A DNA stretch of 64,000 nt from an uncultured delta proteobacterium (GTDB lineage: Bacteria > Desulfobacterota > Binatia > UBA9968). Made by a program: the position numbers and the translations under genes. The notes below the pieces were generated by a model that saw nothing but the letters and a program-made list of their open reading frames with translations, was not told the DNA's origin and searched no databases. The stretch lies in NCBI GenBank assembly GCA_963847445.1, contig CAWJZV010000030.1, positions 224,001-288,000 on the forward strand, given 5' to 3'. Numbering within the stretch: position 1 is the stretch's first letter; each line of letters opens with the position of its first letter. Shown here one piece after another: positions 1-53,327 of the stretch.

Positions 1-403
1 TCGCTGGTATGACGGTTGAACTCTCCCCACCACCCCACAGCGCAATCAGCCCCGCCGCATGCGCACACACCTCATCCCAACCGACAGCGCTCTGCCCTTT
101 CTCCGACCGCCGCCGTCCCTTGGTAATCAACCGGCACAGATTGGCGTAGCCGCCACGATCCTGGGCCAGCAAAACAATTGTCGAGCCGTCATCGATCGAG
201 ATCTCCGAGCCGATGATCAGCTTCAGCCCCACCTCGCGCGCCTTCACATGCGCCCGCACGACGCCATAGACCCCATCCCGGTCGGTCAACGCCAACGCCG
301 GCAGGCCCTGCCGAAACGCCTCATCGACCAACTCATCCGGATGGCTCGCGCCTTCGAGGAAGGAAAAATTACTTTTGCACCAGAGGGGAATGTAGGAGGA
401 CAT
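1..403 (-). CDS. dnaE2: Error-prone DNA polymerase III alpha subunit DnaE2/ImuC, N-terminal PHP domain (runs off the window)
   Basis: My translation from the ATG at 403: MSSYIPLWCKSNFSFLEGASHPDELVDEAFRQGLPALALTDRDGVYGVVRAHVKA...LLAQDRGGYANLCRLIT. SNFSFLEGASHP and ALTDRDG are DnaE2-type motifs. Confidence 0.93.
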   Translation of the reverse strand, partial: MSSYIPLWCKSNFSFLEGASHPDELVDEAFRQGLPALALTDRDGVYGVVRAHVKAREVGLKLIIGSEISIDDGSTIVLLAQDRGGYANLCRLITKGRRRSEKGQSAVGWDEVCAHAAGLIALWGGGESSTVIPA

Positions 404-25408: not shown

Positions 25409-25714
25409 GTATAAGCGAGATGCTTTTGTGACGGCTAACGAGTGAATAGGCTGGTCTGGCTATTACCGAGGTTATATTCGATTAACCTGGCTGCTTTGTA
25501 TTGCTAAAACCGCCTACTTGTCAAATTATTTGCATTGCAGATTGCTCTGGCCAACTTAGACCAGTTTTTTTCTGTTAGGACTGACAACACGGCAACGATC
25601 AACTCAACTGATTGTCCGCCGGGCTGCAAACTCCACGCCCACCACGGTTAAGGACATGCGTGCTTTGTGCCCGCCAGCGCTCCCAATCGTTTCTGATACT
25701 CTTCAGAGAAACTC

Positions 25715-25755
25715 GTTCAAAATGTTCCAGCCGTTCAAAAAGTTCAAATCGTTCG
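25715..25755. repeat. 9-bp GTTCAAnnn tandem array
   Basis: gttcaaaat gttccagcc gttcaaaaa gttcaaatc gttcg. Confidence 0.85.
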
Positions 25756-27085: not shown

Positions 27086-27385
27086 CTACCCCGCATACCT
27101 TAGCGACTGTTTTCTCATAATTCGTTGGCAATGTCTCTCTTCGCCTCTTCCGTCATACCGCGCCTGCAGATCGAGCCAGTAGCGCTCCGACATGCCGAAG
27201 TAATGCGCCAGCCGGTGGGCGATGTCGGCGTCGATGGCGCGCTGGCCCTGGACGATGTCATAAACGCGCCGCGTCGGCACGCCGATGTCGCGGGCGAGAT
27301 GCCAGACGCTCACTCCTCGGGGAGCGAGGAATTCTTCTAACAATATTCTGCCGGGATGTGTCTTTGAAAAGCGATTGGTGTTCAT
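27086..27385 (-). CDS. higA: HigA-family antitoxin (no adjacent toxin)
   Basis: HPGRILLEEFL, LA..IGV, RAIDAD.A.RLA.YFG, WLDLQ..YD. Confidence 0.88.
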   Translation of the reverse strand: MNTNRFSKTHPGRILLEEFLAPRGVSVWHLARDIGVPTRRVYDIVQGQRAIDADIAHRLAHYFGMSERYWLDLQARYDGRGEERHCQRIMRKQSLRYAG

Positions 27386-27410
27386 GGGTGCTCCTTTTCT
27401 AGATTTTCAG

Positions 27411-27453
27411 GTTCAAACCGTTCAAATCGTTCAAGTCGTTCAAACCGTTTCAA
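27411..27453. repeat. 9-bp GTTCAAnnn array (downstream arm of four-helix-bundle unit 2)
   Basis: gttcaaacc gttcaaatc gttcaagtc gttcaaacc gtttcaa. Confidence 0.9.
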
Positions 27454-27462
27454 GGATCGGAT

Positions 27463-27887
27463 TTAAGGTGTCGAACTTGTTCGATTTGTTTGATGCCGTA
27501 TACTTCTGGCCCCTTCAGAGCGCTGCGCTTTGAGGTAGTCGATCAGGTTACTGATCATGATGGACAGTCGACTGAAACGATTTGCTGACGTCGTCGACAA
27601 TCTTTCTGCGCGACATAAGCTTGATCCAAAGCTACGTAGAGTTGGGAGCGCACCTCGCCACACGATGCTTTGGCGACGTAGAGAAATTGAACGAACTCTT
27701 GATTTCCGCCGCGTTCAAATCCTTCGGCGATATTGGACATGACCGACATTGAGCTGCCCGGCGGATTTGATCCCGCAACGCGAAATCCTTGGCGAATCTT
27801 GTCGTCTTTCGTCATCTGATAAATTCTTTGGGTAAGCCGTCGCGCATCTTTCCATATCTCAAGGTCTTCAAAATTCTTCACTTCCAT
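27463..27887 (-). CDS. Four helix bundle protein (23S rRNA IVS-protein family), copy 2, frameshifted
   Basis: FEDLEIWK, SNIAEGFERGGNQEF.QFLYVAKASCGEVRSQL. Confidence 0.88.
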
Positions 27888-27902
27888 TGTCATCCTCCTC
27901 CT

Positions 27903-27951
27903 AACGATTTGGAACGTTTCGAACACGCTTGAACGTTTTGAACTGTTGAAC
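27903..27951. repeat. Inverted 9-bp array (TTGAAC; upstream arm of unit 2)
   Basis: ttggaacgtttcgaacacgcttgaacgttttgaactgttgaac. Confidence 0.85.
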
Positions 27952-27964
27952 TTTTGCATTCGCG

Positions 27965-29535
27965 TCATTCGACCGCGCCTTGTAAGAAACCATCGCCGTC
28001 TCACCCGGTCGTAGTAGAGCCACAGCAAATCGCCGCGGCGGGTTTCGGCGTAGTAGTATTCGCGCTGGATCTCGCGGTTCCACCAGCCGCCGGCGAAGAC
28101 GTAGGGGCCGGTGAGTTTGTCGATGGTGCCGTGCTTGGGGCCCAGGACGAGCCAGCCGTCTTCGTGGCTGTGATACGGGCCGCCGGCCAAGCGCACCGGC
28201 TTATGGTTGACGCGGCGGATCAGCATATTCGGAGTGGAGAGGTTCAATCCGTTCAAATCGTTCAACCGCTTCGCGGAGCCTGCCCTGAGCGCGGTCGAAG
28301 GGTTCAAAACGTTTGTCGGAAGTTTGACTTGAGTGAGCGGCTCCCAGGTAAATCTCGCTTCGGGCAGATGGCCGTCGGTGAGCTTGGCGCAGACCACCGC
28401 GTCGTCGCCGAACTCGGCGCGCAGACGCGCCAGCGCGCGGTTGGCGGCTTCGAGGTCGCGGGTCGGTTTCTCGTTAAATAAGCGCAACTGCTCGCTGGTG
28501 GCGGCGCAGGCTTCGGCGCTGAGCTCGATTTCAATGGCGCCGGCGGCGAGCTGGAGCGACTCCAGGCGCAGACGAACTAGATCTAGAATCTGCACGGCAT
28601 CGAGTGTCGGCACGGCCGGGCGCAGCGATTCTTTGAAATAGTTTCCATGATCAACCAGCAACGATAACCAGAGCGCGACCAGCGCCTGATGGCGCGCGGC
28701 GAGGGTGGTTAACAAGGGATGGAGCAGCTGCTTGATCAAAAACAGCAGCCGGGTGCTGTCGCTCTCGGCGTCGTCGAGAATAACCGTCTGCCGCGCCGGC
28801 TCCACCGGCGCGCTCGGCGCCAGCGGCGTCCACAGATCGCCGGCGGCCATGCGGTGCAGACGATGGGCTTGCTTGCCGAAGCGCTCGCGCAGCCCGCCCG
28901 GCGGCAAGGACAACAGCGCGCCGACGGTTGTGACGCCGAGCTTGAACAGCGCATCGCGAAACTTGGGCTCGATGTTCAAACGGTTGAGCGGCACGGCGCT
29001 GGCCGCCTGCTTTTCTTCGGCAGCATCGCGAAAGATGGTGATCCCCGCTTTCGTCTTGGCGACCGCATAGCTGCCGAAGCGGCTGAAACCGACGGCGAGA
29101 TTGGCGTTAAATCCCTGAGCGGAGAGATCTTGCTGCATGGCGCTGGCCCACTGCTTTGGGCGAAGCATAGAGACGTTGCAGGCCGGCACCGTTCAACCAA
29201 AAGACGCCGGGCTCTTGCGCCGCCGGCTCGACCTCGGGAGTAAAGCGCATCAGCCGATCGGTTAAATCGCCAAGCGCCTTTTCACTCTCAGCCGGCGAAA
29301 CTTCGCCGGCGCGCAACGTCGACGCGAGGGAAAACGCCGCGGCGTAGCGCAGGCCGGGCAGCACGCCCTGCCGGCGCGCGCTTTCATTGACCCAGAGGAC
29401 CAACCCCTGCGGCTTGTCCTGCGCCACCACCGCCGCCGGATGACCGGCCCAGTCGGGATGGCGCCGGAGCAAGAGTTGCAATGGAAACGCCGGCAGATCA
29501 ACACAGGCCAGCCGGCCCGGTATAGAGCTCTTCAT
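27965..29535 (-). CDS. imuB: ImuB, inactive Y-family polymerase (frameshifts near 29165 and 27985)
   Basis: ACVDLPAFPLQ, A...GV.PG, RFTPEVE, GGWW...REYY..E...LWLY.D; overlaps imuA. Confidence 0.9.
28242..28313. repeat. 9-bp array plus REP-like motif inserted in frame in imuB
   Basis: gttcaatcc gttcaaatc gttcaacc...cctgccctgagcgcggtcgaagg gttcaaaac; encodes VLNPSTALRAGSAKRLNDLNGLN. Confidence 0.75.
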
Positions 29536-30094
29536 AATTCCAGGTGGGGCCGCGCCGTTTGTCCTTGAGCACGCGCAGAGCGCAGGCGAAGCGATTACCT
29601 TCCACGCGTTTTTTCTCGGCATGGGCGCGCAGGGAAACCAGCGAACCGAGAGAAAAAGCCCCGTGAGTTTTTTCCGTCAGACAAATCAGCGCCGTGTGAT
29701 GATGATGGGCCAGGCCGGTCAAGCGCGTCTGCAGCGGCATCGGAATATCGGCGGCGCCGAGATCGAGCACGACGACGCCGAAGCCGCCGGAGCGCAGCAG
29801 CTTCTCGCCGGCGCGGGCGATGCTGTCGGCGCGCGCTAAACGCACCACCACCAACGCCGCCAAATCGGTGCCGCCTTGAGCGACATCCGGCGGATAGAAA
29901 GAATGTTCCGCCAAGGTGATCCAACCCACCGGCTCGCCGCGCGCCTGCGCCTCGCGAATCAAAGTAAACGTCAGCGTCAACGCCGCCGAAGCCGCCGCTC
30001 CGGAGATCTCGACGAATCGCCCGGCGACCTCGTCAAGCGTCCACGGCGTCGCTGGAATAGCGGGACGAAGTTTTTGCGCGGGAGATAAAGCCAT
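29498..30094 (-). CDS. imuA: ImuA (RecA-like, degenerate Walker A)
   Basis: GRFVEISG, FYPPD.A..G.DL, LLRSGGFGVVVLD, SLGSLVSLR; coupled to imuB. Confidence 0.88.
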   Translation of the reverse strand: MALSPAQKLRPAIPATPWTLDEVAGRFVEISGAAASAALTLTFTLIREAQARGEPVGWITLAEHSFYPPDVAQGGTDLAALVVVRLARADSIARAGEKLLRSGGFGVVVLDLGAADIPMPLQTRLTGLAHHHHTALICLTEKTHGAFSLGSLVSLRAHAEKKRVEGNRFACALRVLKDKRRGPTWNYEELYTGPAGLC

Positions 30095-30250
30095 GAATGG
30101 GCACTCCGGGAAAATTGCTCCGGCACCAGAGCGGGACACAAACGACGAGATCAGCAATCGACAACAGCTTCAGAACGGTAGGATCGAGCTGCTACAGAAA
30201 AGTAACGTCGCGTTCGCAAAATGTAGAAAATGGTAGAAGGGGGGAGCTTT

Positions 30251-40027: not shown

Positions 40028-41274
<1,247 letters not shown>

Positions 41275-49287: not shown

Positions 49288-50004
49288 GACATTTTTGGTC
49301 AGCCAGTCTGCACCTTGGATCAATTCGTCGACTTGCTCACGTGTTGGCTCCTAACATCCTTCTTGTGTGAGCACAGATTTCGAAGATCAGCGAGGAAACG
49401 AAATCTTTCGCCAAGCTGTGTCAATAACGGAAGCCGCCTTCAGCGGGTCATTCAGATCGGCCGATCGTTGGATTTTTCTAAACTTTCACGCCTTTGGAGT
49501 CCGCTACTTTCTGCAGGTGACCCTCAATGACGACACCGACTAGCGCACCCGCTGCGCGGAGGCTCACGTAGGAAGCTGGATGCGACAACTAGCTCACTAT
49601 CGTGGAGTACTCTCTGGCTCGTCTGGTGTTGTGGTGCACAGGATCGACGCGCTCGGCAATTGCCTTGATGATGGCGGGCTCAACGAAGTAGTATATGAGG
49701 GTTCTCTCGTCCTGTCGAAATCCGGGTGCTGGAACTTGTGCGGGTCGAGCTCTTGAAGAAGTCATGAACCAGAAGGTTCCGTAGCCGATACGCCTTCGCT
49801 TGGGATCGATCTGCGTAGTACGCCTTGAACTCCGCAAGACGGTCCGGTGCAAGCGATGCAACGGCCTTCAGTGCCTTTGTGTACCAGCATGGTATCCTAT
49901 TGGAACGCTTGGCTACGCTTCTTCTGGAACGCGACGGCAAGCTTAGCGCCGCTGTCGTACAGGTCATCGGTCTCTTTGCGAATGAGATCTCGTTTTGCGT
50001 ACAT
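49282..50004 (-). CDS. HEPN-like protein (frameshifted), first cassette
   Basis: C-terminus pieced across frames: WRKIS/FLADLRNLCSHKKD/EPTREQVDELIQG, with an RxxxxH motif. Confidence 0.6.
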
Positions 50005-50009
50005 ACGTC

Positions 50010-50135
50010 TTCTAACTATTAAGTGAGCGATTTAGACTGCGCCAGTATTGGCCGCCTATTCCAAACAACTCCGTTGATGATAAACGACAACATTGCGAAC
50101 TGTATCGCTTACTTCCTGCATGAAAGTCAAGATTT
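50010..50135 (-). promoter_or_regulatory. attI-like array head with possible upstream promoter
   Basis: GTTAGAA core with no complementary arm; TTGACT about 115 bp upstream in an AT-rich tract. Confidence 0.45.
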
Positions 50136-50320
50136 CTCATTCCGGCAATTGCCGCCAGGTTGGCCGCTTATCCAGGCTGAAAGTCGTCGTTTCAACTTTT
50201 CAAAAGTCGGTCTGCCGGGCTTTGAACGCCTCTGCCGCCGCGATTCAAAACATGCGTGTAGATCAATCGTCGTGCTGACATCGCGACGCGCGGACAGGCT
50301 TCCGCCAGGAGCGCATGGAA

Positions 50321-50457
50321 GCGTTCAAAACGTTCAAGTTGTTCAAGTCATTCCGATGGAAACGGTTCCAAAAGTTCCAGGCGTTCCAACGGTTCTAGCC
50401 AATCTGGAATTAAAAGCGGTTCAAAACGTTCAAATTGTTCAAGTCGTTCAAAACGTT
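50321..50457. repeat. 9-bp GTTCAAnnn arrays (downstream arm of four-helix-bundle unit 1)
   Basis: gttcaaaac gttcaagtt gttcaagtc ... gttcaaaac gttcaaatt gttcaagtc gttcaaaac gtt. Confidence 0.9.
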
Positions 50458-50468
50458 GCGGATCGGAT

Positions 50469-50885
50469 TTAAGGTGTCGTACTTTTTGATTTGTTCGATG
50501 CCGTATACTTTGGGCCTTTCAACGAACTGCGCTTTAGGTAGTCGATCAGGTTGCTGATCATAATGGATAGGCGACGAAACGATTGGCTGGCAGCGTCACA
50601 ATCTTTCTGCGCGACATAGGATTGATCCAGGGCTACGTAAAGGTGCGAGCGCACTTCCCCGCACGAGGCTTTGGCGACATAGAGAAATTGAATAAATTCT
50701 TGGTTTCCGCCGCGTTCGAATCCTTCGGCGATGTTCGACAGGATCGACACTGCGGCCCGCCTGATTTGATCCCGCAACGCGAAGTCCTTGGCAAAACCAC
50801 CATCCTTCGTCATTCGATAAATCGCTTTCGTAAGCAGTCGCGCATCTTTCCAAATCTCAAGGTCTTCAAAATTCTTCACTTCCAT
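50469..50885 (-). CDS. Four helix bundle protein (23S rRNA IVS-protein family), copy 1
   Basis: Own RBS (GAGGAGGAG); FEDLEIWK, LRDQIRRAAVSILSNIAEGFER. Confidence 0.92.
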   Translation of the reverse strand: MEVKNFEDLEIWKDARLLTKAIYRMTKDGGFAKDFALRDQIRRAAVSILSNIAEGFERGGNQEFIQFLYVAKASCGEVRSHLYVALDQSYVAQKDCDAASQSFRRLSIMISNLIDYLKRSSLKGPKYTASNKSKSTTP

Positions 50886-50900
50886 CGTCTCCTCCTCTTT

Positions 50901-50940
50901 AACGACTTGAACGTTTTGAACGACTTGAACGATTGGAACC
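50901..50940. repeat. Inverted 9-bp array (upstream arm of unit 1)
   Basis: 50910-50939 is the reverse complement of 50428-50457 at 28 of 30 positions. Confidence 0.9.
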
Positions 50941-50941
50941 C

Positions 50942-51551
50942 TTAGAATTTTCTTAAGCAGCCCGACAATTTTTCCGGCGATGCGGAACTCGCCTTCGGCG
51001 ACGACGATCGGCGCGTACTTGTCATTTTCCGCTTTGAGCGTGACCACGCCGTCTTTTTTGTAGAACCGCTTGAGCGTCGCTTCGCCGTCGATCAGGGCGC
51101 AGACGATCTCGCCGTTCTCCGCCGTGGTCTGCTGCTTGACGATCACCCGGTCGCCGTCGATGATGCCGGCGCCGATCATGCTGTCGCCTTGGACTTGCAG
51201 GGCGAACTGTTTACCGCCGCCCATGTCGCTGGGAATCGCTAAGAACCCTTCGGTATTTTCCTCGCTCAAAAACGGCTTGCCGGCGGCGACCCGGCCGAGA
51301 ATCGGCACTTCACGGGTGACGTTGATGACCGCCTTGCCGAGAGCATTGACGACTTCGATGGCGCGCTTGCCGACCCGGCGGATATAGCCCTTTTTTTCCA
51401 GCGCTTTCAGATGATCGGATACCCCGTTGGTCGAGGCGATCTTAAACTGCCGGCCGATCTCATGGATCGACGGCGCAAAGCCCTGCTCGCGAATACTCTT
51501 CAAGAGAAAATCGTAGATCGCCTTTTGCCGGTCGGTCAGCGCGGGAAGCAT
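50942..51551 (-). CDS. lexA: SOS repressor LexA (true stop probably masked by a 1-nt insertion)
   Basis: LTDRQ..I, PSI.EI, ALEKKGYI, GRVAAG, GDSM, TLKRF. Confidence 0.95.
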
Positions 51552-51561
51552 GAAAGCTATA

Positions 51562-51581
51562 TACTGAAAATATTTTCAGTA
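51562..51581. promoter_or_regulatory. Putative LexA operator overlapping the lexA promoter
   Basis: Perfect 20-bp palindrome TACTGAAAATATTTTCAGTA (CTG-N10-CAG), 10 bp before the ATG, abutting TTGACT. Confidence 0.8.
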
Positions 51582-51607
51582 GTCAAGGCGCGGCAAAATT
51601 ACGGCTG

Positions 51608-51714
51608 GTTCAAGCCGTTCCAGCCGTTCAAATCGTTCAAGCCGTTGAACTCAAACCGGTTCAAACCGTTCCGGAAACGATTTGAACGACTTGAACGTTT
51701 TGAACTATTTGAAC
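51608..51714. repeat. Gene-less inverted pair of 9-bp arrays (hairpin)
   Basis: GTTCAA units followed directly by TTGAAC units. Confidence 0.85.
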
Positions 51715-51734
51715 GGTCTAACGCGCCCGGCGCG

Positions 51735-53327
51735 TTAGACTTTTTTGCGTTGATGCGTCAGATAGTCGACGAGCATGTACTCGCCCAAGCGGTCGGGGCG
51801 GCTGTAGAAGGCGCGGCCTTTGTTGATGCGGGTGAGATCGTCGACGAAGCCGCGCAGCACCGGGCTGTCGTCGAGCATGAAGGTGTTGATGGTGATGCCT
51901 TTGCGGGTGATGCGCTCGGCTTCTTTCAAAGTCTCTTCGGCGGCGCGCTGGCTGATGCCGCCGAAGCTGAGCGGCCATTCGCAGTAAAGCCGTCCGTCGC
52001 GGCAGTAAGCCGTCGGCTGGCCGTCGGTGATGACGATGATCTGCTGGTTGGCGCTCGGTTTGCGGTCGAGCATGGTCGACGCCAGGTGCAAGCCATCCTG
52101 TAAGTTGGTGAACGGATCGCCCATGTTCCAGGTCGCCTGCGGCAAGTCCTTGGCTTTGAGTTCGACGGCGCGGGTAAAGAAACCGACGATGCCGAAGTAA
52201 TCGCGCGGGTACAGCGCGCGCACCAGACTCTCCATCGCCAGGGCGACTTTTTTCGCCGCGGCGAAGCGCCCTTCCCAGCTCATCGACCAACTCATGTCCA
52301 ACAACAGCACGGTGGCGGCGCGGGTATTGAGCTCGGTTTCGTAAACCGAAAAGTCCTTGGGCCCGATCCGCACCGGCACGCCGCCGCCGCGCACCAGCGC
52401 GTTCTTCAAGGTCTGGATCATGTTGATATGCAGCGGATCGCCCTGCACATAGGGTTTGTTGCTTTCGAGAACAACTTCTTGGCTGCCGCGGTTGCGCGTC
52501 GAGTGGCGGCCCATGCCGTCGCGGCGCAATTGTTGATAAATATCGCGCAGCGCCAACTGGCCGATGCGGCGCACGCCCTTGGGCGTCAACTCGAAGCGAT
52601 CGCCGCTCTCGAGCACGTAGCCGCCCTCTTCGAGCAGCGACTGCATGCGCATGATGCCTTCGAAGTCCTGCTTGGGATCGCCGCCGAGAAGTTTTTCCAA
52701 CAACTCCTTGTCGACGTCCTTCAACTGCATGCTCGACAGCTGGGACTCGAGCTTGCGCAGATCCTCCATGCGCTCCATCAGCTCCTGCGACTGCTGGAAA
52801 TCCATCGGCGTTTGGCCGCGAAATAAGCTGCCCTCGCGGCGCAGCCAGTTCTCCAGCTTGCGGATCTGCTCGAGCTGCATCAGCAGCTGCTCGAAGTCTT
52901 TTTCGGCGTTGGAATTTTCGAACCGGTAGGAAGTGAGCTTGTCGACCGCCTCGCTGGTCTTGCCCGGCAAGTCGTTCAAGAACTGTTTCTTTTCCTGCAC
53001 ATCTTGGCCTGACTCGTCCATCTGCTCGAGCGTCTGCTGCTCTTGGTCGACCACCGAATCGAGCTTCTCCTGGACCTCGTCCATGGCCGATTGCAGCTTG
53101 TACTCGTCGTAGAGCTTGCGCATCTCGCGCGCCACTTGCGACAACAGATCTTCGATGCCCTTGGTCTGCTTTTCGCCCTGCTTGAGCCCCTTCTGCATCA
53201 GCCGGCGCATCGCCTGCTGCAGATCGCCGGTGTCGTTCATGTTCTCGTTCAACTGATCGAACACCGACTCCGGGTCCAGCGAGTCTCCGCCGCTGGCGAC
53301 CCAGCGGCTATAGCGGATATGCACCAT
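51735..53327 (-). CDS. VWA domain protein
   Basis: LLLDMSWSM, TNLQ, ITDGQPTA. Confidence 0.88.
   Translation of the reverse strand: MVHIRYSRWVASGGDSLDPESVFDQLNENMNDTGDLQQAMRRLMQKGLKQGEKQTKGIEDLLSQVAREMRKLYDEYKLQSAMDEVQEKLDSVVDQEQQTLEQMDESGQDVQEKKQFLNDLPGKTSEAVDKLTSYRFENSNAEKDFEQLLMQLEQIRKLENWLRREGSLFRGQTPMDFQQSQELMERMEDLRKLESQLSSMQLKDVDKELLEKLLGGDPKQDFEGIMRMQSLLEEGGYVLESGDRFELTPKGVRRIGQLALRDIYQQLRRDGMGRHSTRNRGSQEVVLESNKPYVQGDPLHINMIQTLKNALVRGGGVPVRIGPKDFSVYETELNTRAATVLLLDMSWSMSWEGRFAAAKKVALAMESLVRALYPRDYFGIVGFFTRAVELKAKDLPQATWNMGDPFTNLQDGLHLASTMLDRKPSANQQIIVITDGQPTAYCRDGRLYCEWPLSFGGISQRAAEETLKEAERITRKGITINTFMLDDSPVLRGFVDDLTRINKGRAFYSRPDRLGEYMLVDYLTHQRKKV

Follow-up and report, generated by a model that had tools for sequence, protein, structure and literature searches.

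Directly after lexA, the window (the whole 64,000-nt stretch of DNA analyzed here) carries a four-helix-bundle gene set between inverted arrays of the unit GTTCAAnnn, as an earlier note on this DNA had described. The ORF, at 50469-50885 on the minus strand, matches PF05635, the Pfam family of 23S rRNA intervening-sequence proteins, over profile positions 1-105 of 106 (E = 4e-33, 114.2 bits), exceeding the gathering cut-off of 33.8 bits over the full domain. Its basic product (138 aa plus stop, pI 9.4) also matches PDB entry 2GSC (E = 3.8e-13), which has five chains. The ORF upstream of it is identified as LexA by Pfam matches to an S24 peptidase and a LexA DNA-binding domain. TRF places period-9 arrays at 50419-50457 (GTTCAA on the plus strand) and 50901-50939 (TTGAAC). 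Positions 50428-50457 match the reverse complement of 50910-50939 at 28 of 30 positions, and the longest arms, 50420-50457 and 50910-50947, span 38 nt and are 87% complementary. The sequence GTTCAANNNGTTCAA occurs 18 times in the window, versus 0 times in each of 100 shuffles. The features of this locus and of the remaining SOS operon genes are the following:

2-400, minus strand: dnaE2 N-terminus (PHP domain), running off the window and split into two frames
25713-25754, no strand assigned: solo array of the GTTCAA family, in a variable region
27086-27385, minus strand: higA-like gene, found after the imuB cassette in most relatives
27408-27956, minus strand: sister cassette after imuB, with arms 27411-27454 and 27903-27956 and ORF start at about 27887; frameshifted, with two in-frame TGA codons
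27957-29622, minus strand: imuB, split over two frames
28242-28313, minus strand: in-frame GTTCAA array inside imuB (...LNDLNGLN...), differing from G014 by a 33-nt indel
29498-30157, minus strand: imuA, SOS mutagenesis operon gene
50321-50395, no strand assigned: two extra arrays outside the unit (GTTCAA x3; GTTCCA x3-4), missing there in G014
50416-50460, minus strand: downstream (3') arm; in the sense direction a conserved TCCGAUCCGCAACG spacer, then four TTGAAC units
50469-50885, minus strand: PF05635 four-helix-bundle gene
50886-50898, minus strand: spacer with the Shine-Dalgarno site GAGGAGGAG, which the predicted fold pairs with CCUU at the stop codon
50899-50947, minus strand: upstream (5') arm of four to five units, sense GTTCAAnnn/GTTCCAnnn
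50942-51551, minus strand: lexA, which in relatives ends ...RKF-stop directly ahead of the array
51562-51581, no strand assigned: LexA-box-like sequence TACTG-N10-CAGTA, palindromic, located by pattern search 11 nt ahead of the lexA start codon
51608-51715, no strand assigned: gene-less GTTCAA-family palindrome (5+4 units around a 29-nt loop) that separates the lexA promoter from the vWA gene upstream; conserved in G014

The arrays at 50321-50395 are a correction to the extent given earlier: they lie outside the cassette, and the closest relative, G014, is without them. The palindrome at 51562-51581 is the sole such site in the window, and we take it to be a putative SOS box from the E. coli-type consensus. 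The arrays were considered as LexA boxes themselves and ruled out, because their sequence is not that of the candidate box. A search of the unit's minus strand gave no promoter-like or terminator-like site. There was no rRNA match in 49800-52000; the cassettes adjoin lexA and the variable region, and imuB and the higA-like gene, instead. The latter name is our assumption from the sequence of the gene, which has no Pfam family at E <= 1e-5. Rfam covariance models gave nothing at gathering score, the matches being sub-threshold hairpin-like miRNA models.

The second unit that had been reported after imuB aligns with the lexA unit over its full length, arms included, and similarity ends at the outer edges of the arms. 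Both copies sit at junctions of the SOS operon, as claimed, but the ORF of the second is frameshifted. Because it carries about seven small insertions and the two in-frame TGA codons, this unit is either a pseudogene or an assembly error. In the window the lexA frame runs on into the cassette through a 1-nt indel, which fuses lexA and the four-helix-bundle gene into a single open frame, and imuB is likewise continuous with the second unit. Assembly indels are likely here, since imuB, an aldo-keto reductase and dnaE2 are also split. In annotation, lexA or imuB open frames entering such arrays are best treated as likely indel artefacts. One public-run DNA contig shows a 1-nt-shorter lexA end, but it belongs to a relative. 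The in-frame GTTCAA array of imuB is absent from the imuB of family f2.

The earlier note had proposed that the arms could form a stem around the ORF, and the predicted fold agrees: the arms are paired in both the MFE and the centroid structures of the cassette. The arm duplex reaches -41.8 kcal/mol versus -14.1 +/- 3.4 for 500 shuffles; folded as a whole, the unit was no more stable than shuffled sequence (z = -0.96). Twenty or more flank-to-flank pairs were predicted in 72 of 90 related cassettes versus 22 of 124 shifted-window controls, and pairing of the Shine-Dalgarno window to the 3' flank in 44 versus 13, the 90 cassettes being kin rather than independent, many of them stemming from one or two insertions. 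Non-Watson-Crick positions of the stem gave no sense-strand G.U excess in the SOS clade (94 G.U versus 117 A.C), and other cassettes had 52 G.U versus 38 A.C. With no RNA-strand bias in the mismatches, the stems do not demonstrate selection for pairing in RNA, and the similarity of the arms could be maintained by a process acting on DNA. Own-arm duplexes were modestly more stable than cross-locus ones (-56.9 versus -50.2 kcal/mol). At 15 of 67 loci the own-arm duplex was stronger than each of 15 cross pairs, but these energies are not decisive because the core is common to all arms. Public sequencing runs, the best of which share about half of the sampled words, yielded only short contigs, drawn by the arrays from many loci, and none of them connects lexA to the cassette. 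Joints in these contigs that skip from 50456 to about 50900 have other letters in between and resemble gene-less palindromes from elsewhere more than excision products.

The 96 related proteins divide into 41 after imuB, 25 after lexA, 24 elsewhere and 6 cut by a contig end, so that 66 of the 90 uncut close relatives lie directly after lexA or imuB. Forty of the 66 testable metagenome loci have period-9 GTTCAA arms, with the sense array upstream and the antisense array downstream (reverse polarity in 6 and 5), and in most others the core is unchanged but the period is 7-8, or the core is a variant. Arm types follow the protein clades, with separate clades for GTTCAA at period 9, for GTTCAA at period 7-8 and for GTTCCA. 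A median dN/dS of 0.06 over 420 pairs shows strong purifying selection on the protein. The cassette is inherited across a bacterial family, and sequence has been exchanged between its two sites, lexA-linked and imuB-linked proteins being intermixed on a quick tree with at least 11 label changes per group. Several records titled as other phyla belong to this same family: a Verrucomicrobiia-titled L019 record (G183) matches at coordinates identical to G024, and both the lexA and the imuB cassette recur in a Binatia-titled genome. Comparison of orthologous loci, suggested earlier as a check, did uncover empty junctions, found only in a distant outgroup, G049. Its compact lexA-imuA-imuB-dnaE2 operon is empty at both places, with the lexA stop, a 10-nt spacer and the imuA ATG at one, and the imuB stop directly followed by the dnaE2 ATG at the other. 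These empty junctions are in line with the earlier interpretation. Between species at 88-89% identity, however, cassettes and gene-less hairpins alike keep their positions (hairpins: G014, G004), and movement is therefore rare.

Inverted-arm bracketing is typical of the PF05635 gene family, as the enrichment check proposed in the earlier note brought out. The genome has 11 PF05635 genes, only 2 of them with the GTTCAA motif, and at 9 of the 11 loci the flanking inverted repeats outscore all 300 random positions, each with its own motif. A phylum sample of 28 testable loci, from 28 other genomes, yielded 24 with scores of at least 16, where the maximum of 52 controls was 11.5. These flank repeats were scored by ungapped complementarity, which replaced duplex folding of 190-nt and 300-nt flanks, by which loci were not separable from controls. 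PF05635 proteins occur in 69 of 121 genomes sampled from the phylum. A few members have direct instead of inverted arrays (L224, L226, L246), and other cassettes have anywhere between 3 and more than 12 units. Of 32 cassettes, 22 have co-directional neighbors on either side, not clearly above what is usual for adjacent bacterial genes. Among 121 loci with four GTTCAA units the gene was present in 3, two of which are the same imuB locus in kin and the third (L017) a low-GC contig; this weakens the idea of motif and protein spreading together across phyla. The best Chitinophagaceae matches (39-42% identity) have flanking GTTTGG/CCAAAC arrays, not GTTCAA. We found no literature linking PF05635 genes to flanking tandem arrays, operon spacers or lexA/imuB among PMC Creative Commons articles and bioRxiv. 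To our knowledge, no role for these proteins has been established since their discovery in rRNA intervening sequences (IVS), and we know of no catalytic domain in the family.

Several known systems resemble this arrangement in part. REP and REPIN sequences are dispersed intergenic palindromes found after gene ends, and the associated RAYT gene has the repeat on both sides in inverted orientation. The GTTCAA family likewise consists of dispersed palindromes after gene ends together with a flanked protein gene, but that gene encodes a four-helix bundle, not a Y1 transposase, and none of the PF01797 (Y1 transposase) matches of the genome (C2:49291, C7:138324, C1:37854, C39:721) stands beside a listed array pair. 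Integron cassettes are small promoter-less ORFs with an attC hairpin repeat and a link to SOS. The unit shares these traits, although it has two arms rather than one attC, and the 61 ORFs of window 1-54.8 kb include no integrase family member at E <= 1e-5. The GTTCAA arrays are also similar to the STRR heptamers of cyanobacteria, short-period intergenic tandem arrays of unknown function; the STRR literature listing showed no link to PF05635 genes. A parallel is provided by ORF-containing 23S rRNA IVS of Coxiella burnetii and Leptospira, for which PMC4990558 describes a PF05635 (S23p) ORF in a terminal-inverted-repeat stem loop without a transposase. The same source gives a 28-bp terminal stem enclosing the S23p ORF of the C. 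burnetii IVS (helix 45), cut by RNase III in vitro. The IVS-like architecture proposed earlier is recovered here, with a PF05635 ORF and its Shine-Dalgarno site closed by long inverted arms. Unlike the IVS in helix 25 or 45, the cassette lies between operon protein genes, its arms are 9-nt tandem arrays with a fixed hexamer core, and gene-less copies are dispersed. The protein belongs to the same superfamily as Avd, which two reports describe as a basic pentameric barrel binding structured RNA (bioRxiv 10.1101/2023.10.23.563531, PMC10053308). In contrast to the Avd of DGRs, no reverse transcriptase is nearby (none in 61 window ORFs), a different contig carries the genome's single RVT_1 gene, and no template/variable repeat pair was seen in 50250-51000 and 27350-28350.

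We consider it reasonably likely that the unit is an IVS-type four-helix-bundle gene cassette residing in operon spacers, transcribed with the SOS operon, whose arms close a processable stem. The self-contained unit comprises 5' arm, Shine-Dalgarno site, PF05635 ORF and inverted 3' arm, and occupies the intercistronic junctions behind lexA and imuB of a putatively LexA-controlled lexA-imuA-imuB-dnaE2 operon. Having apparently no promoter of its own, it would be expressed with that operon. On the transcript the arms may close a stem of about 40 bp, looping out the ORF and partly covering its Shine-Dalgarno site. By analogy with 23S rRNA IVS, this stem is probably a substrate of RNase III, and its cleavage would release the cassette RNA from the message of lexA or imuAB. 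The protein, basic and Avd-like, presumably binds nucleic acid. The arms are members of a palindrome family that is dispersed over the genome and consists of tandem arrays sharing a fixed hexamer core. Rare, transposase-free spread may proceed through recombination or gene conversion between arms of shared motif, and motif drift through slippage within an arm plus template switching between arms.

The genome-wide distribution of the arrays lends itself to a different reading, in which they are REP-like intercistronic host elements (mRNA 3'-end stabilizers, terminators, or sites of a host protein that reads the hexamer) and the ORF is a passenger inside two of them. Against 2 cassettes the genome holds 166 GTTCAA arrays and 30 gene-less palindromes, 29 of which are intergenic, mostly starting 3-33 nt past a stop codon. 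When both neighbors were called (n = 23), 15 palindromes lay between co-directional genes, 6 between convergent and 2 between divergent ones; no target-site duplication was evident by eye in the 30. GTTCAA arrays are present in 36 of 36 genomes of the bacterial family. Pattern matches number 93, 72, 12 and 109 in G004, G026, G013 and G031, where no GTTCAA-flanked PF05635 gene was found among the 9 loci examined of 11 matches, these genomes being 92-96% complete. Within arrays the hexamer core is near-invariant (0.02-0.11 non-modal) and the spacer variable (0.17-0.43), so that a plain stem requirement is insufficient as explanation. The earlier note had counted both inconsistent polarity and an independent distribution of the arrays against its own reading: the polarity is consistent, but the arrays do also occur independently, and its interpretation overall is partly supported. 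Yet a passenger leaves unexplained the motif-specific brackets around 9 of 11 and 24 of 28 PF05635 genes and the co-variation of arms with protein clades, and the ORF is under strong purifying selection; we therefore regard this reading as unlikely, if worth keeping in mind.

The invariant core and variable spacer would equally suit a REPIN/RAYT-like partnership, in which an oligomer of the protein binds the repeat units, one per subunit, as RNA or single-stranded DNA, and maintains or mobilizes arms and gene-less copies. Like a RAYT gene, the ORF stands between inverted copies of a repeat that is dispersed elsewhere; array length peaks sharply at 4 units (99 of 166 arrays), and the related PDB entry has five chains; Avd binds an RNA stem. 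Gene-less arrays exist for some other cassette motifs too (AATTCCA 16, AATCCAA 22, GAGATA 5, versus 0-1 for permuted units), but the motifs of three further cassettes show no such excess. Moreover, GTTCAA arrays persist in the four genomes named above, a large TGGAGT array family has no cassette in this genome, the unit numbers of other cassettes do not keep to one value, and the PF05635 family has no known catalytic domain, all of which makes such a partnership improbable. The concentration of relatives after lexA or imuB (66 of 90) and the dN/dS of 0.06 could instead mean that the protein was co-opted by the SOS response as an accessory of the ImuA-ImuB-DnaE2 mutasome, with the arms as relics of its arrival. 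Of five family members without the protein, 4 lack this lexA and all 5 lack this imuB at the thresholds used, and two reports present Avd as an essential partner of a mutagenic polymerase (bioRxiv 10.1101/2023.10.23.563531, PMC10053308). However, 24 of the 90 close relatives are in unrelated contexts, other PF05635 genes are found in operons of many sorts, the operon of the outgroup does without the gene, and the arms are kept rather than decayed, so that we give co-option very little credence.

Returning to the IVS-type cassette, a more far-reaching version of it is conceivable, if rather doubtful: PF05635 cassettes may be widespread transposase-free mobile units, for which rRNA intervening sequences would be the best-known landing site. 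Such units would copy themselves and shed gene-less palindromes by means of their tandem-array arms, through recombination between like arms or hairpin-templated synthesis in SOS-type DNA repair, while the conserved basic oligomer would bind the arm stem or the repeated hexamers to protect or time that step. If the gene normally travels as a stem-bracketed operon-spacer cassette, the insertions in rRNA would be a single example of a more general element. The system would then offer an experimental handle, with the arms as RNA or DNA partner, an SOS operon available both empty and filled, and a strongly selected protein. TRF reports about 680 arrays in this genome, and cassettes may account for some of the short-period tandem-array palindromes that number in the hundreds in genomes of this kind. 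One orthologous hairpin shows concerted change, reading GTTCAA/TTGAAC here and GTTCCA/TGGAAC in every unit of both arms in G004.

The unit after lexA (cassette 1) consists of an open reading frame matching Pfam PF05635, with a tandem short-unit repeat array on either side, the second inverted with respect to the first. The window covers positions 224001-288000 of contig C30 in an assembly of 7.19 Mb (48 contigs, 57% G+C), and the elements of the SOS region are as follows.

Cassettes and neighboring genes
51608-51715: gene-less palindrome (inverted array pair), just upstream of the lexA promoter
Start at 51551, minus strand: lexA, with S24 peptidase and LexA DNA-binding domains
Behind lexA, minus strand: 5' arm of cassette 1, 4-5 units, GTTCAAnnn on the sense strand
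Between 5' arm and PF05635 ORF, minus strand: Shine-Dalgarno site GAGGAGG
50469-50885, minus strand: PF05635 ORF, 138 aa (Pfam match, E 4e-33)
Behind the PF05635 ORF, minus strand: 3' arm, four inverse TTGAAC units
40113-41262: aldo-keto reductase gene, split over two frames
27555-29622: imuB region, split over two frames
27408-27956: cassette 2, after imuB, aligned to cassette 1
Contig C30, 223080-224400: dnaE2, split over two frames

The arm complementarity claimed in the earlier note, 28 of 30 positions, proved exact on recount, and the closely related second unit that it placed after imuB was recovered as cassette 2, whose alignment to cassette 1 extends to the outer edge of each arm and stops there. 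The GTTCAANNNGTTCAA pattern occurs 18 times in the window versus 0 times in 100 shuffles. In copy 2 there are some seven small insertions, and TGA occurs twice in frame. No stop separates lexA from cassette 1, nor imuB from cassette 2; since relatives have a stop just ahead of the array in both lexA (...RKF-stop) and imuB (...WFLQGAVE-stop), each run-on is attributed to a 1-nt indel. Together with the split aldo-keto reductase, imuB and dnaE2 genes, this leads us to suspect assembly indels, and the pattern suggests either these or a decaying locus. A TACTG-N10-CAGTA palindrome, the single such site in the window, lies 11 nt upstream of lexA. No LexA-box-like palindrome was found upstream of imuA, where a short period-10 repeat (AAAATGGTAG) occupies 30218-30238; judging from sequence, imuA-imuB may have lost SOS control in this genome.

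Empty orthologous junctions were sought among relatives, and both are present in G049, a genome from another family of the same order (f3): a spacer of 10 nt separates the lexA stop from the imuA ATG, and the dnaE2 ATG comes immediately after the imuB stop. We therefore read the cassettes as having been inserted where the genes of a compact operon meet. In two genomes of f2, a further family, the imuB-dnaE2 spacer (200-490 nt) contains arrays that are gene-less and of different motifs, including one set arranged as an inverted pair, so this junction has gained arrays more than once; behind the housekeeping-type lexA of f2 (43% identity) there is no cassette. In the window itself the SOS operon is broken up by ∼20 kb of variable DNA between cassette 1 and imuA (30258-50418) and ∼26 kb, also variable, between the higA-like gene and dnaE2 (401-27085), with TIR, PLD, BrnT, PIN, DUF4062 and DUF5131 genes in the two regions. 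The interval between cassette 1 and imuA in the closest relative (G014) measures ∼15 kb and is mostly different DNA, and likeness between the two genomes restarts precisely where the 3' arm of cassette 1 ends on its outer side. An in-frame array within imuB (28242-28313), encoding LN-rich residues, differs by a 33-nt indel between them and is missing in f2 imuB.

The location at SOS operon junctions recurs across the clade. A protein search of metagenome contigs yielded 80 loci at 55-97% identity, 66 of them with at least 100 nt on either side. Consistent inverted polarity was borne out here: at period 9, 40 of the 66 carry three or more sense units ahead of the gene and three or more antisense units behind it, versus the opposite polarity in six upstream and five downstream. 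The others mostly share the core but with a period of 7-8, or have a variant of it. To the metagenome loci we added 27 from relatives, the window copy and one further locus (L013), and dropped 13 with stops or fewer than 100 residues. The remaining 96 proteins, many of them kin stemming from few insertions, lie after imuB (41), after lexA (25) or elsewhere (24), or are cut by a contig end (6). At two loci (L215, L220) imuA stands directly behind the lexA cassette, giving the order lexA-[cassette]-imuA-imuB-[cassette]-higA-like gene. Two public records bear titles at odds with their kinship: the Verrucomicrobiia-titled one behind L019 and L292 (G183) gives the same match, at identical coordinates, as the same-genus G024, and the Binatia-titled genome with L029 and L291 (G184) has the same lexA and imuB cassettes.

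Bracketing by inverted arrays is general for PF05635 genes. Among the 11 matches in the genome (10 above the cut-off), only the two in the window are flanked by GTTCAA; at the remaining copies the inverted arrays are built from different short motifs (e.g., CTCGTG, GAGATA, AATTCCA). Scoring flanks by ungapped complementarity (+1/-1.5), we obtained 14.5-25.5 for nine of the 11 loci versus a maximum of 13.5 at 300 random positions, the two exceptions being one locus whose arrays are direct and one match that is weak and partial. PF05635 is present in 69 of 121 genomes sampled from the phylum; we took 30 loci from 30 genomes, two of which were too short, and 24 of the 28 scored reach at least 16, versus at most 11.5 among 52 shifted-window controls. 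Their arms are tandem units of period 6-9 whose motif changes from locus to locus, and at a few loci the arrays are direct or run both ways. PF05635 genes in this sample often form pairs or triplets within 2-7 kb of the same contig (e.g., G130:C118, G121:C6, G081:C1, G134:C75, G153:C55, G111:C10), judged by eye to be commoner than copy number alone would give.

An ORF of this family within a long terminal stem is the layout of the intervening sequences (IVSs) of 23S rRNA; the cassettes are alike, but in an mRNA setting. The part of the literature consulted describes a Coxiella IVS with its S23p ORF enclosed by a 28-bp terminal stem and an excised RNA with a half-life of ∼4 minutes in E. coli (PMC4990558), the likeness of PF05635 to the diversity-generating retroelement (DGR) accessory protein Avd (PMC10053308), and Avd itself as a positively charged, S23-like pentamer that binds an RNA element (bioRxiv 10.1101/2023.10.23.563531). 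The cassette protein has a pI of 9.4 (median 9.4 over 96 relatives) and matches PDB 2GSC, a five-chain entry. It is under strong purifying selection, with a median dN/dS of 0.06 (interquartile range 0.046-0.078) over the 420 of 2080 pairs of 65 SOS-linked genes with dS between 0.1 and 1.5. A reverse transcriptase adjoins none of the 11 PF05635 genes in the genome, none of its Y1 transposase genes lies beside arrays, Rfam gave no family match for the unit, and our search of PMC Creative Commons papers and bioRxiv found nothing on such PF05635 cassettes in operons or SOS loci.

Folding of the 551-nt unit, for which the earlier note had suggested a possible stem, predicts arms paired over ∼40 bp in both the minimum free energy (MFE) and centroid structures, with the Shine-Dalgarno GAGG paired to CCUU at the stop codon; the z-score of the whole unit against shuffles is only -0.96. 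The arm duplex reaches -41.8 kcal/mol versus -14.1 ± 3.4 (minimum -28.7) in 500 shuffles. Among the 90 of 107 cassettes with enough flank, 72 reach 20 or more pairs between the two flanks (median 38) versus 22 of 124 shifted controls (median 7), and pairing of the Shine-Dalgarno window to the 3' flank is predicted in 44 versus 13 of the same controls. The non-Watson-Crick arm positions on the sense strand are 94 G.U and 117 A.C in 72 distinct SOS-clade cassettes, and 52 G.U and 38 A.C in 33 other cassettes, which speaks against an RNA-specific constraint on the arms. The minus strand inside the unit has no promoter-like or terminator-like site. We regard the unit as an IVS-type cassette in an mRNA setting, which would be co-transcribed with the operon and processed by RNase III, and whose protein would bind nucleic acid.

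Such a cassette may have spread through arm homology. A quick tree built from 90 rows interleaves lexA-linked with imuB-linked proteins, each set requiring no fewer than 11 label changes, and the window copy and the G014 lexA copy group, well supported, with the G014 imuB copy. Orthologous lexA copies differ by a dS of 0.13 and copies at the two sites by ∼0.8, and dS is ∼2 in the comparison with the G009 imuB copy; we conclude that the two sites exchanged sequence in the past, not recently. Array motif and period track protein clades.

Alternatively, and less probably, the arrays may be sites for a host factor. The earlier note's tie of arrays to PF05635 genes stood as far as enriched inverted bracketing goes; the arrays also occur independently of these genes, with 166 GTTCAA arrays (at least three units, at most one mismatch per hexamer) and 30 compact gene-less palindromes (loops 20-182 nt) in the genome, versus 0 arrays for any of 12 permuted hexamers. 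All 36 genomes of the same family (f1) contain the three-unit pattern (3 to 193 matches), as do 2 of 5 of f2 (single matches) and 0 of 19 of f3, with a total of one match to the reversed control; the protein (E ≤ 1e-20) occurs in 25 of 36, 3 of 5 and 0 of 19, respectively, the f1 tallies including two unpublished genomes (G005, G035) whose sequences were left unused. In five protein-less f1 genomes searched for lexA and imuB at E ≤ 1e-30, all lack this imuB and four lack this lexA, which the fifth, G031, has on a contig ending in an array. Pattern matches number 93 in G004, 72 in G026, 12 in G013 and 109 in G031 (genomes 92-96% complete), and none of nine PF05635 loci viewed there, out of 11, has GTTCAA flanks, other motifs appearing instead; arrays thus do not depend on a matching gene in the genome. 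This persistence, together with the conserved hexamer core (0.02-0.11 non-modal between units in 110 period-9 arrays versus 0.17-0.43 in the spacer), leads us to retain the host-factor reading of the arrays beside the IVS-type reading of the unit.

Most arrays have four units (99 of 166), and the 46 adjacent pairs less than 1.5 kb apart comprise 31 plus-then-minus, 11 minus-then-plus and four in the same direction. All but one of the 30 palindromes are intergenic, commonly starting 3-33 nt past a stop codon; by a crude ORF rule, the 23 with both neighbors called are co-directional (15), convergent (6) or divergent (2). Hairpin positions are the same in this genome and G004 (89% identical over 13 kb), and one gene-less hairpin, GTTCAA/TTGAAC here (contig C24, 69363-69490), is GTTCCA/TGGAAC in its G004:C1 orthologue in all units of both arms (L275/L278), a concerted switch. 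TRF finds ∼680 arrays of period 6-9 in the genome, among them arrays with the GTTCAA core (periods 7, 8 and 9) and several families of period 7, frequently forming compact inverted pairs. A second large palindrome family (TGGAGTnn/nnACTCCA, period 8, ∼100 arrays; e.g., C14:122114-122181 and C3:67704-67795) shows the same constant core and variable spacer and flanks no PF05635 gene in the genome. The loop of several gene-less palindromes (e.g., C24:67000-67060, C48:191230-191300, C46:474190-474240) contains a nested G+C-rich hairpin (CCTCCCCCGCG..GCGGGGGAGG), and in many palindromes a CCTCCGAAAACG stretch stands immediately inward of one arm, as it does in the cassettes.
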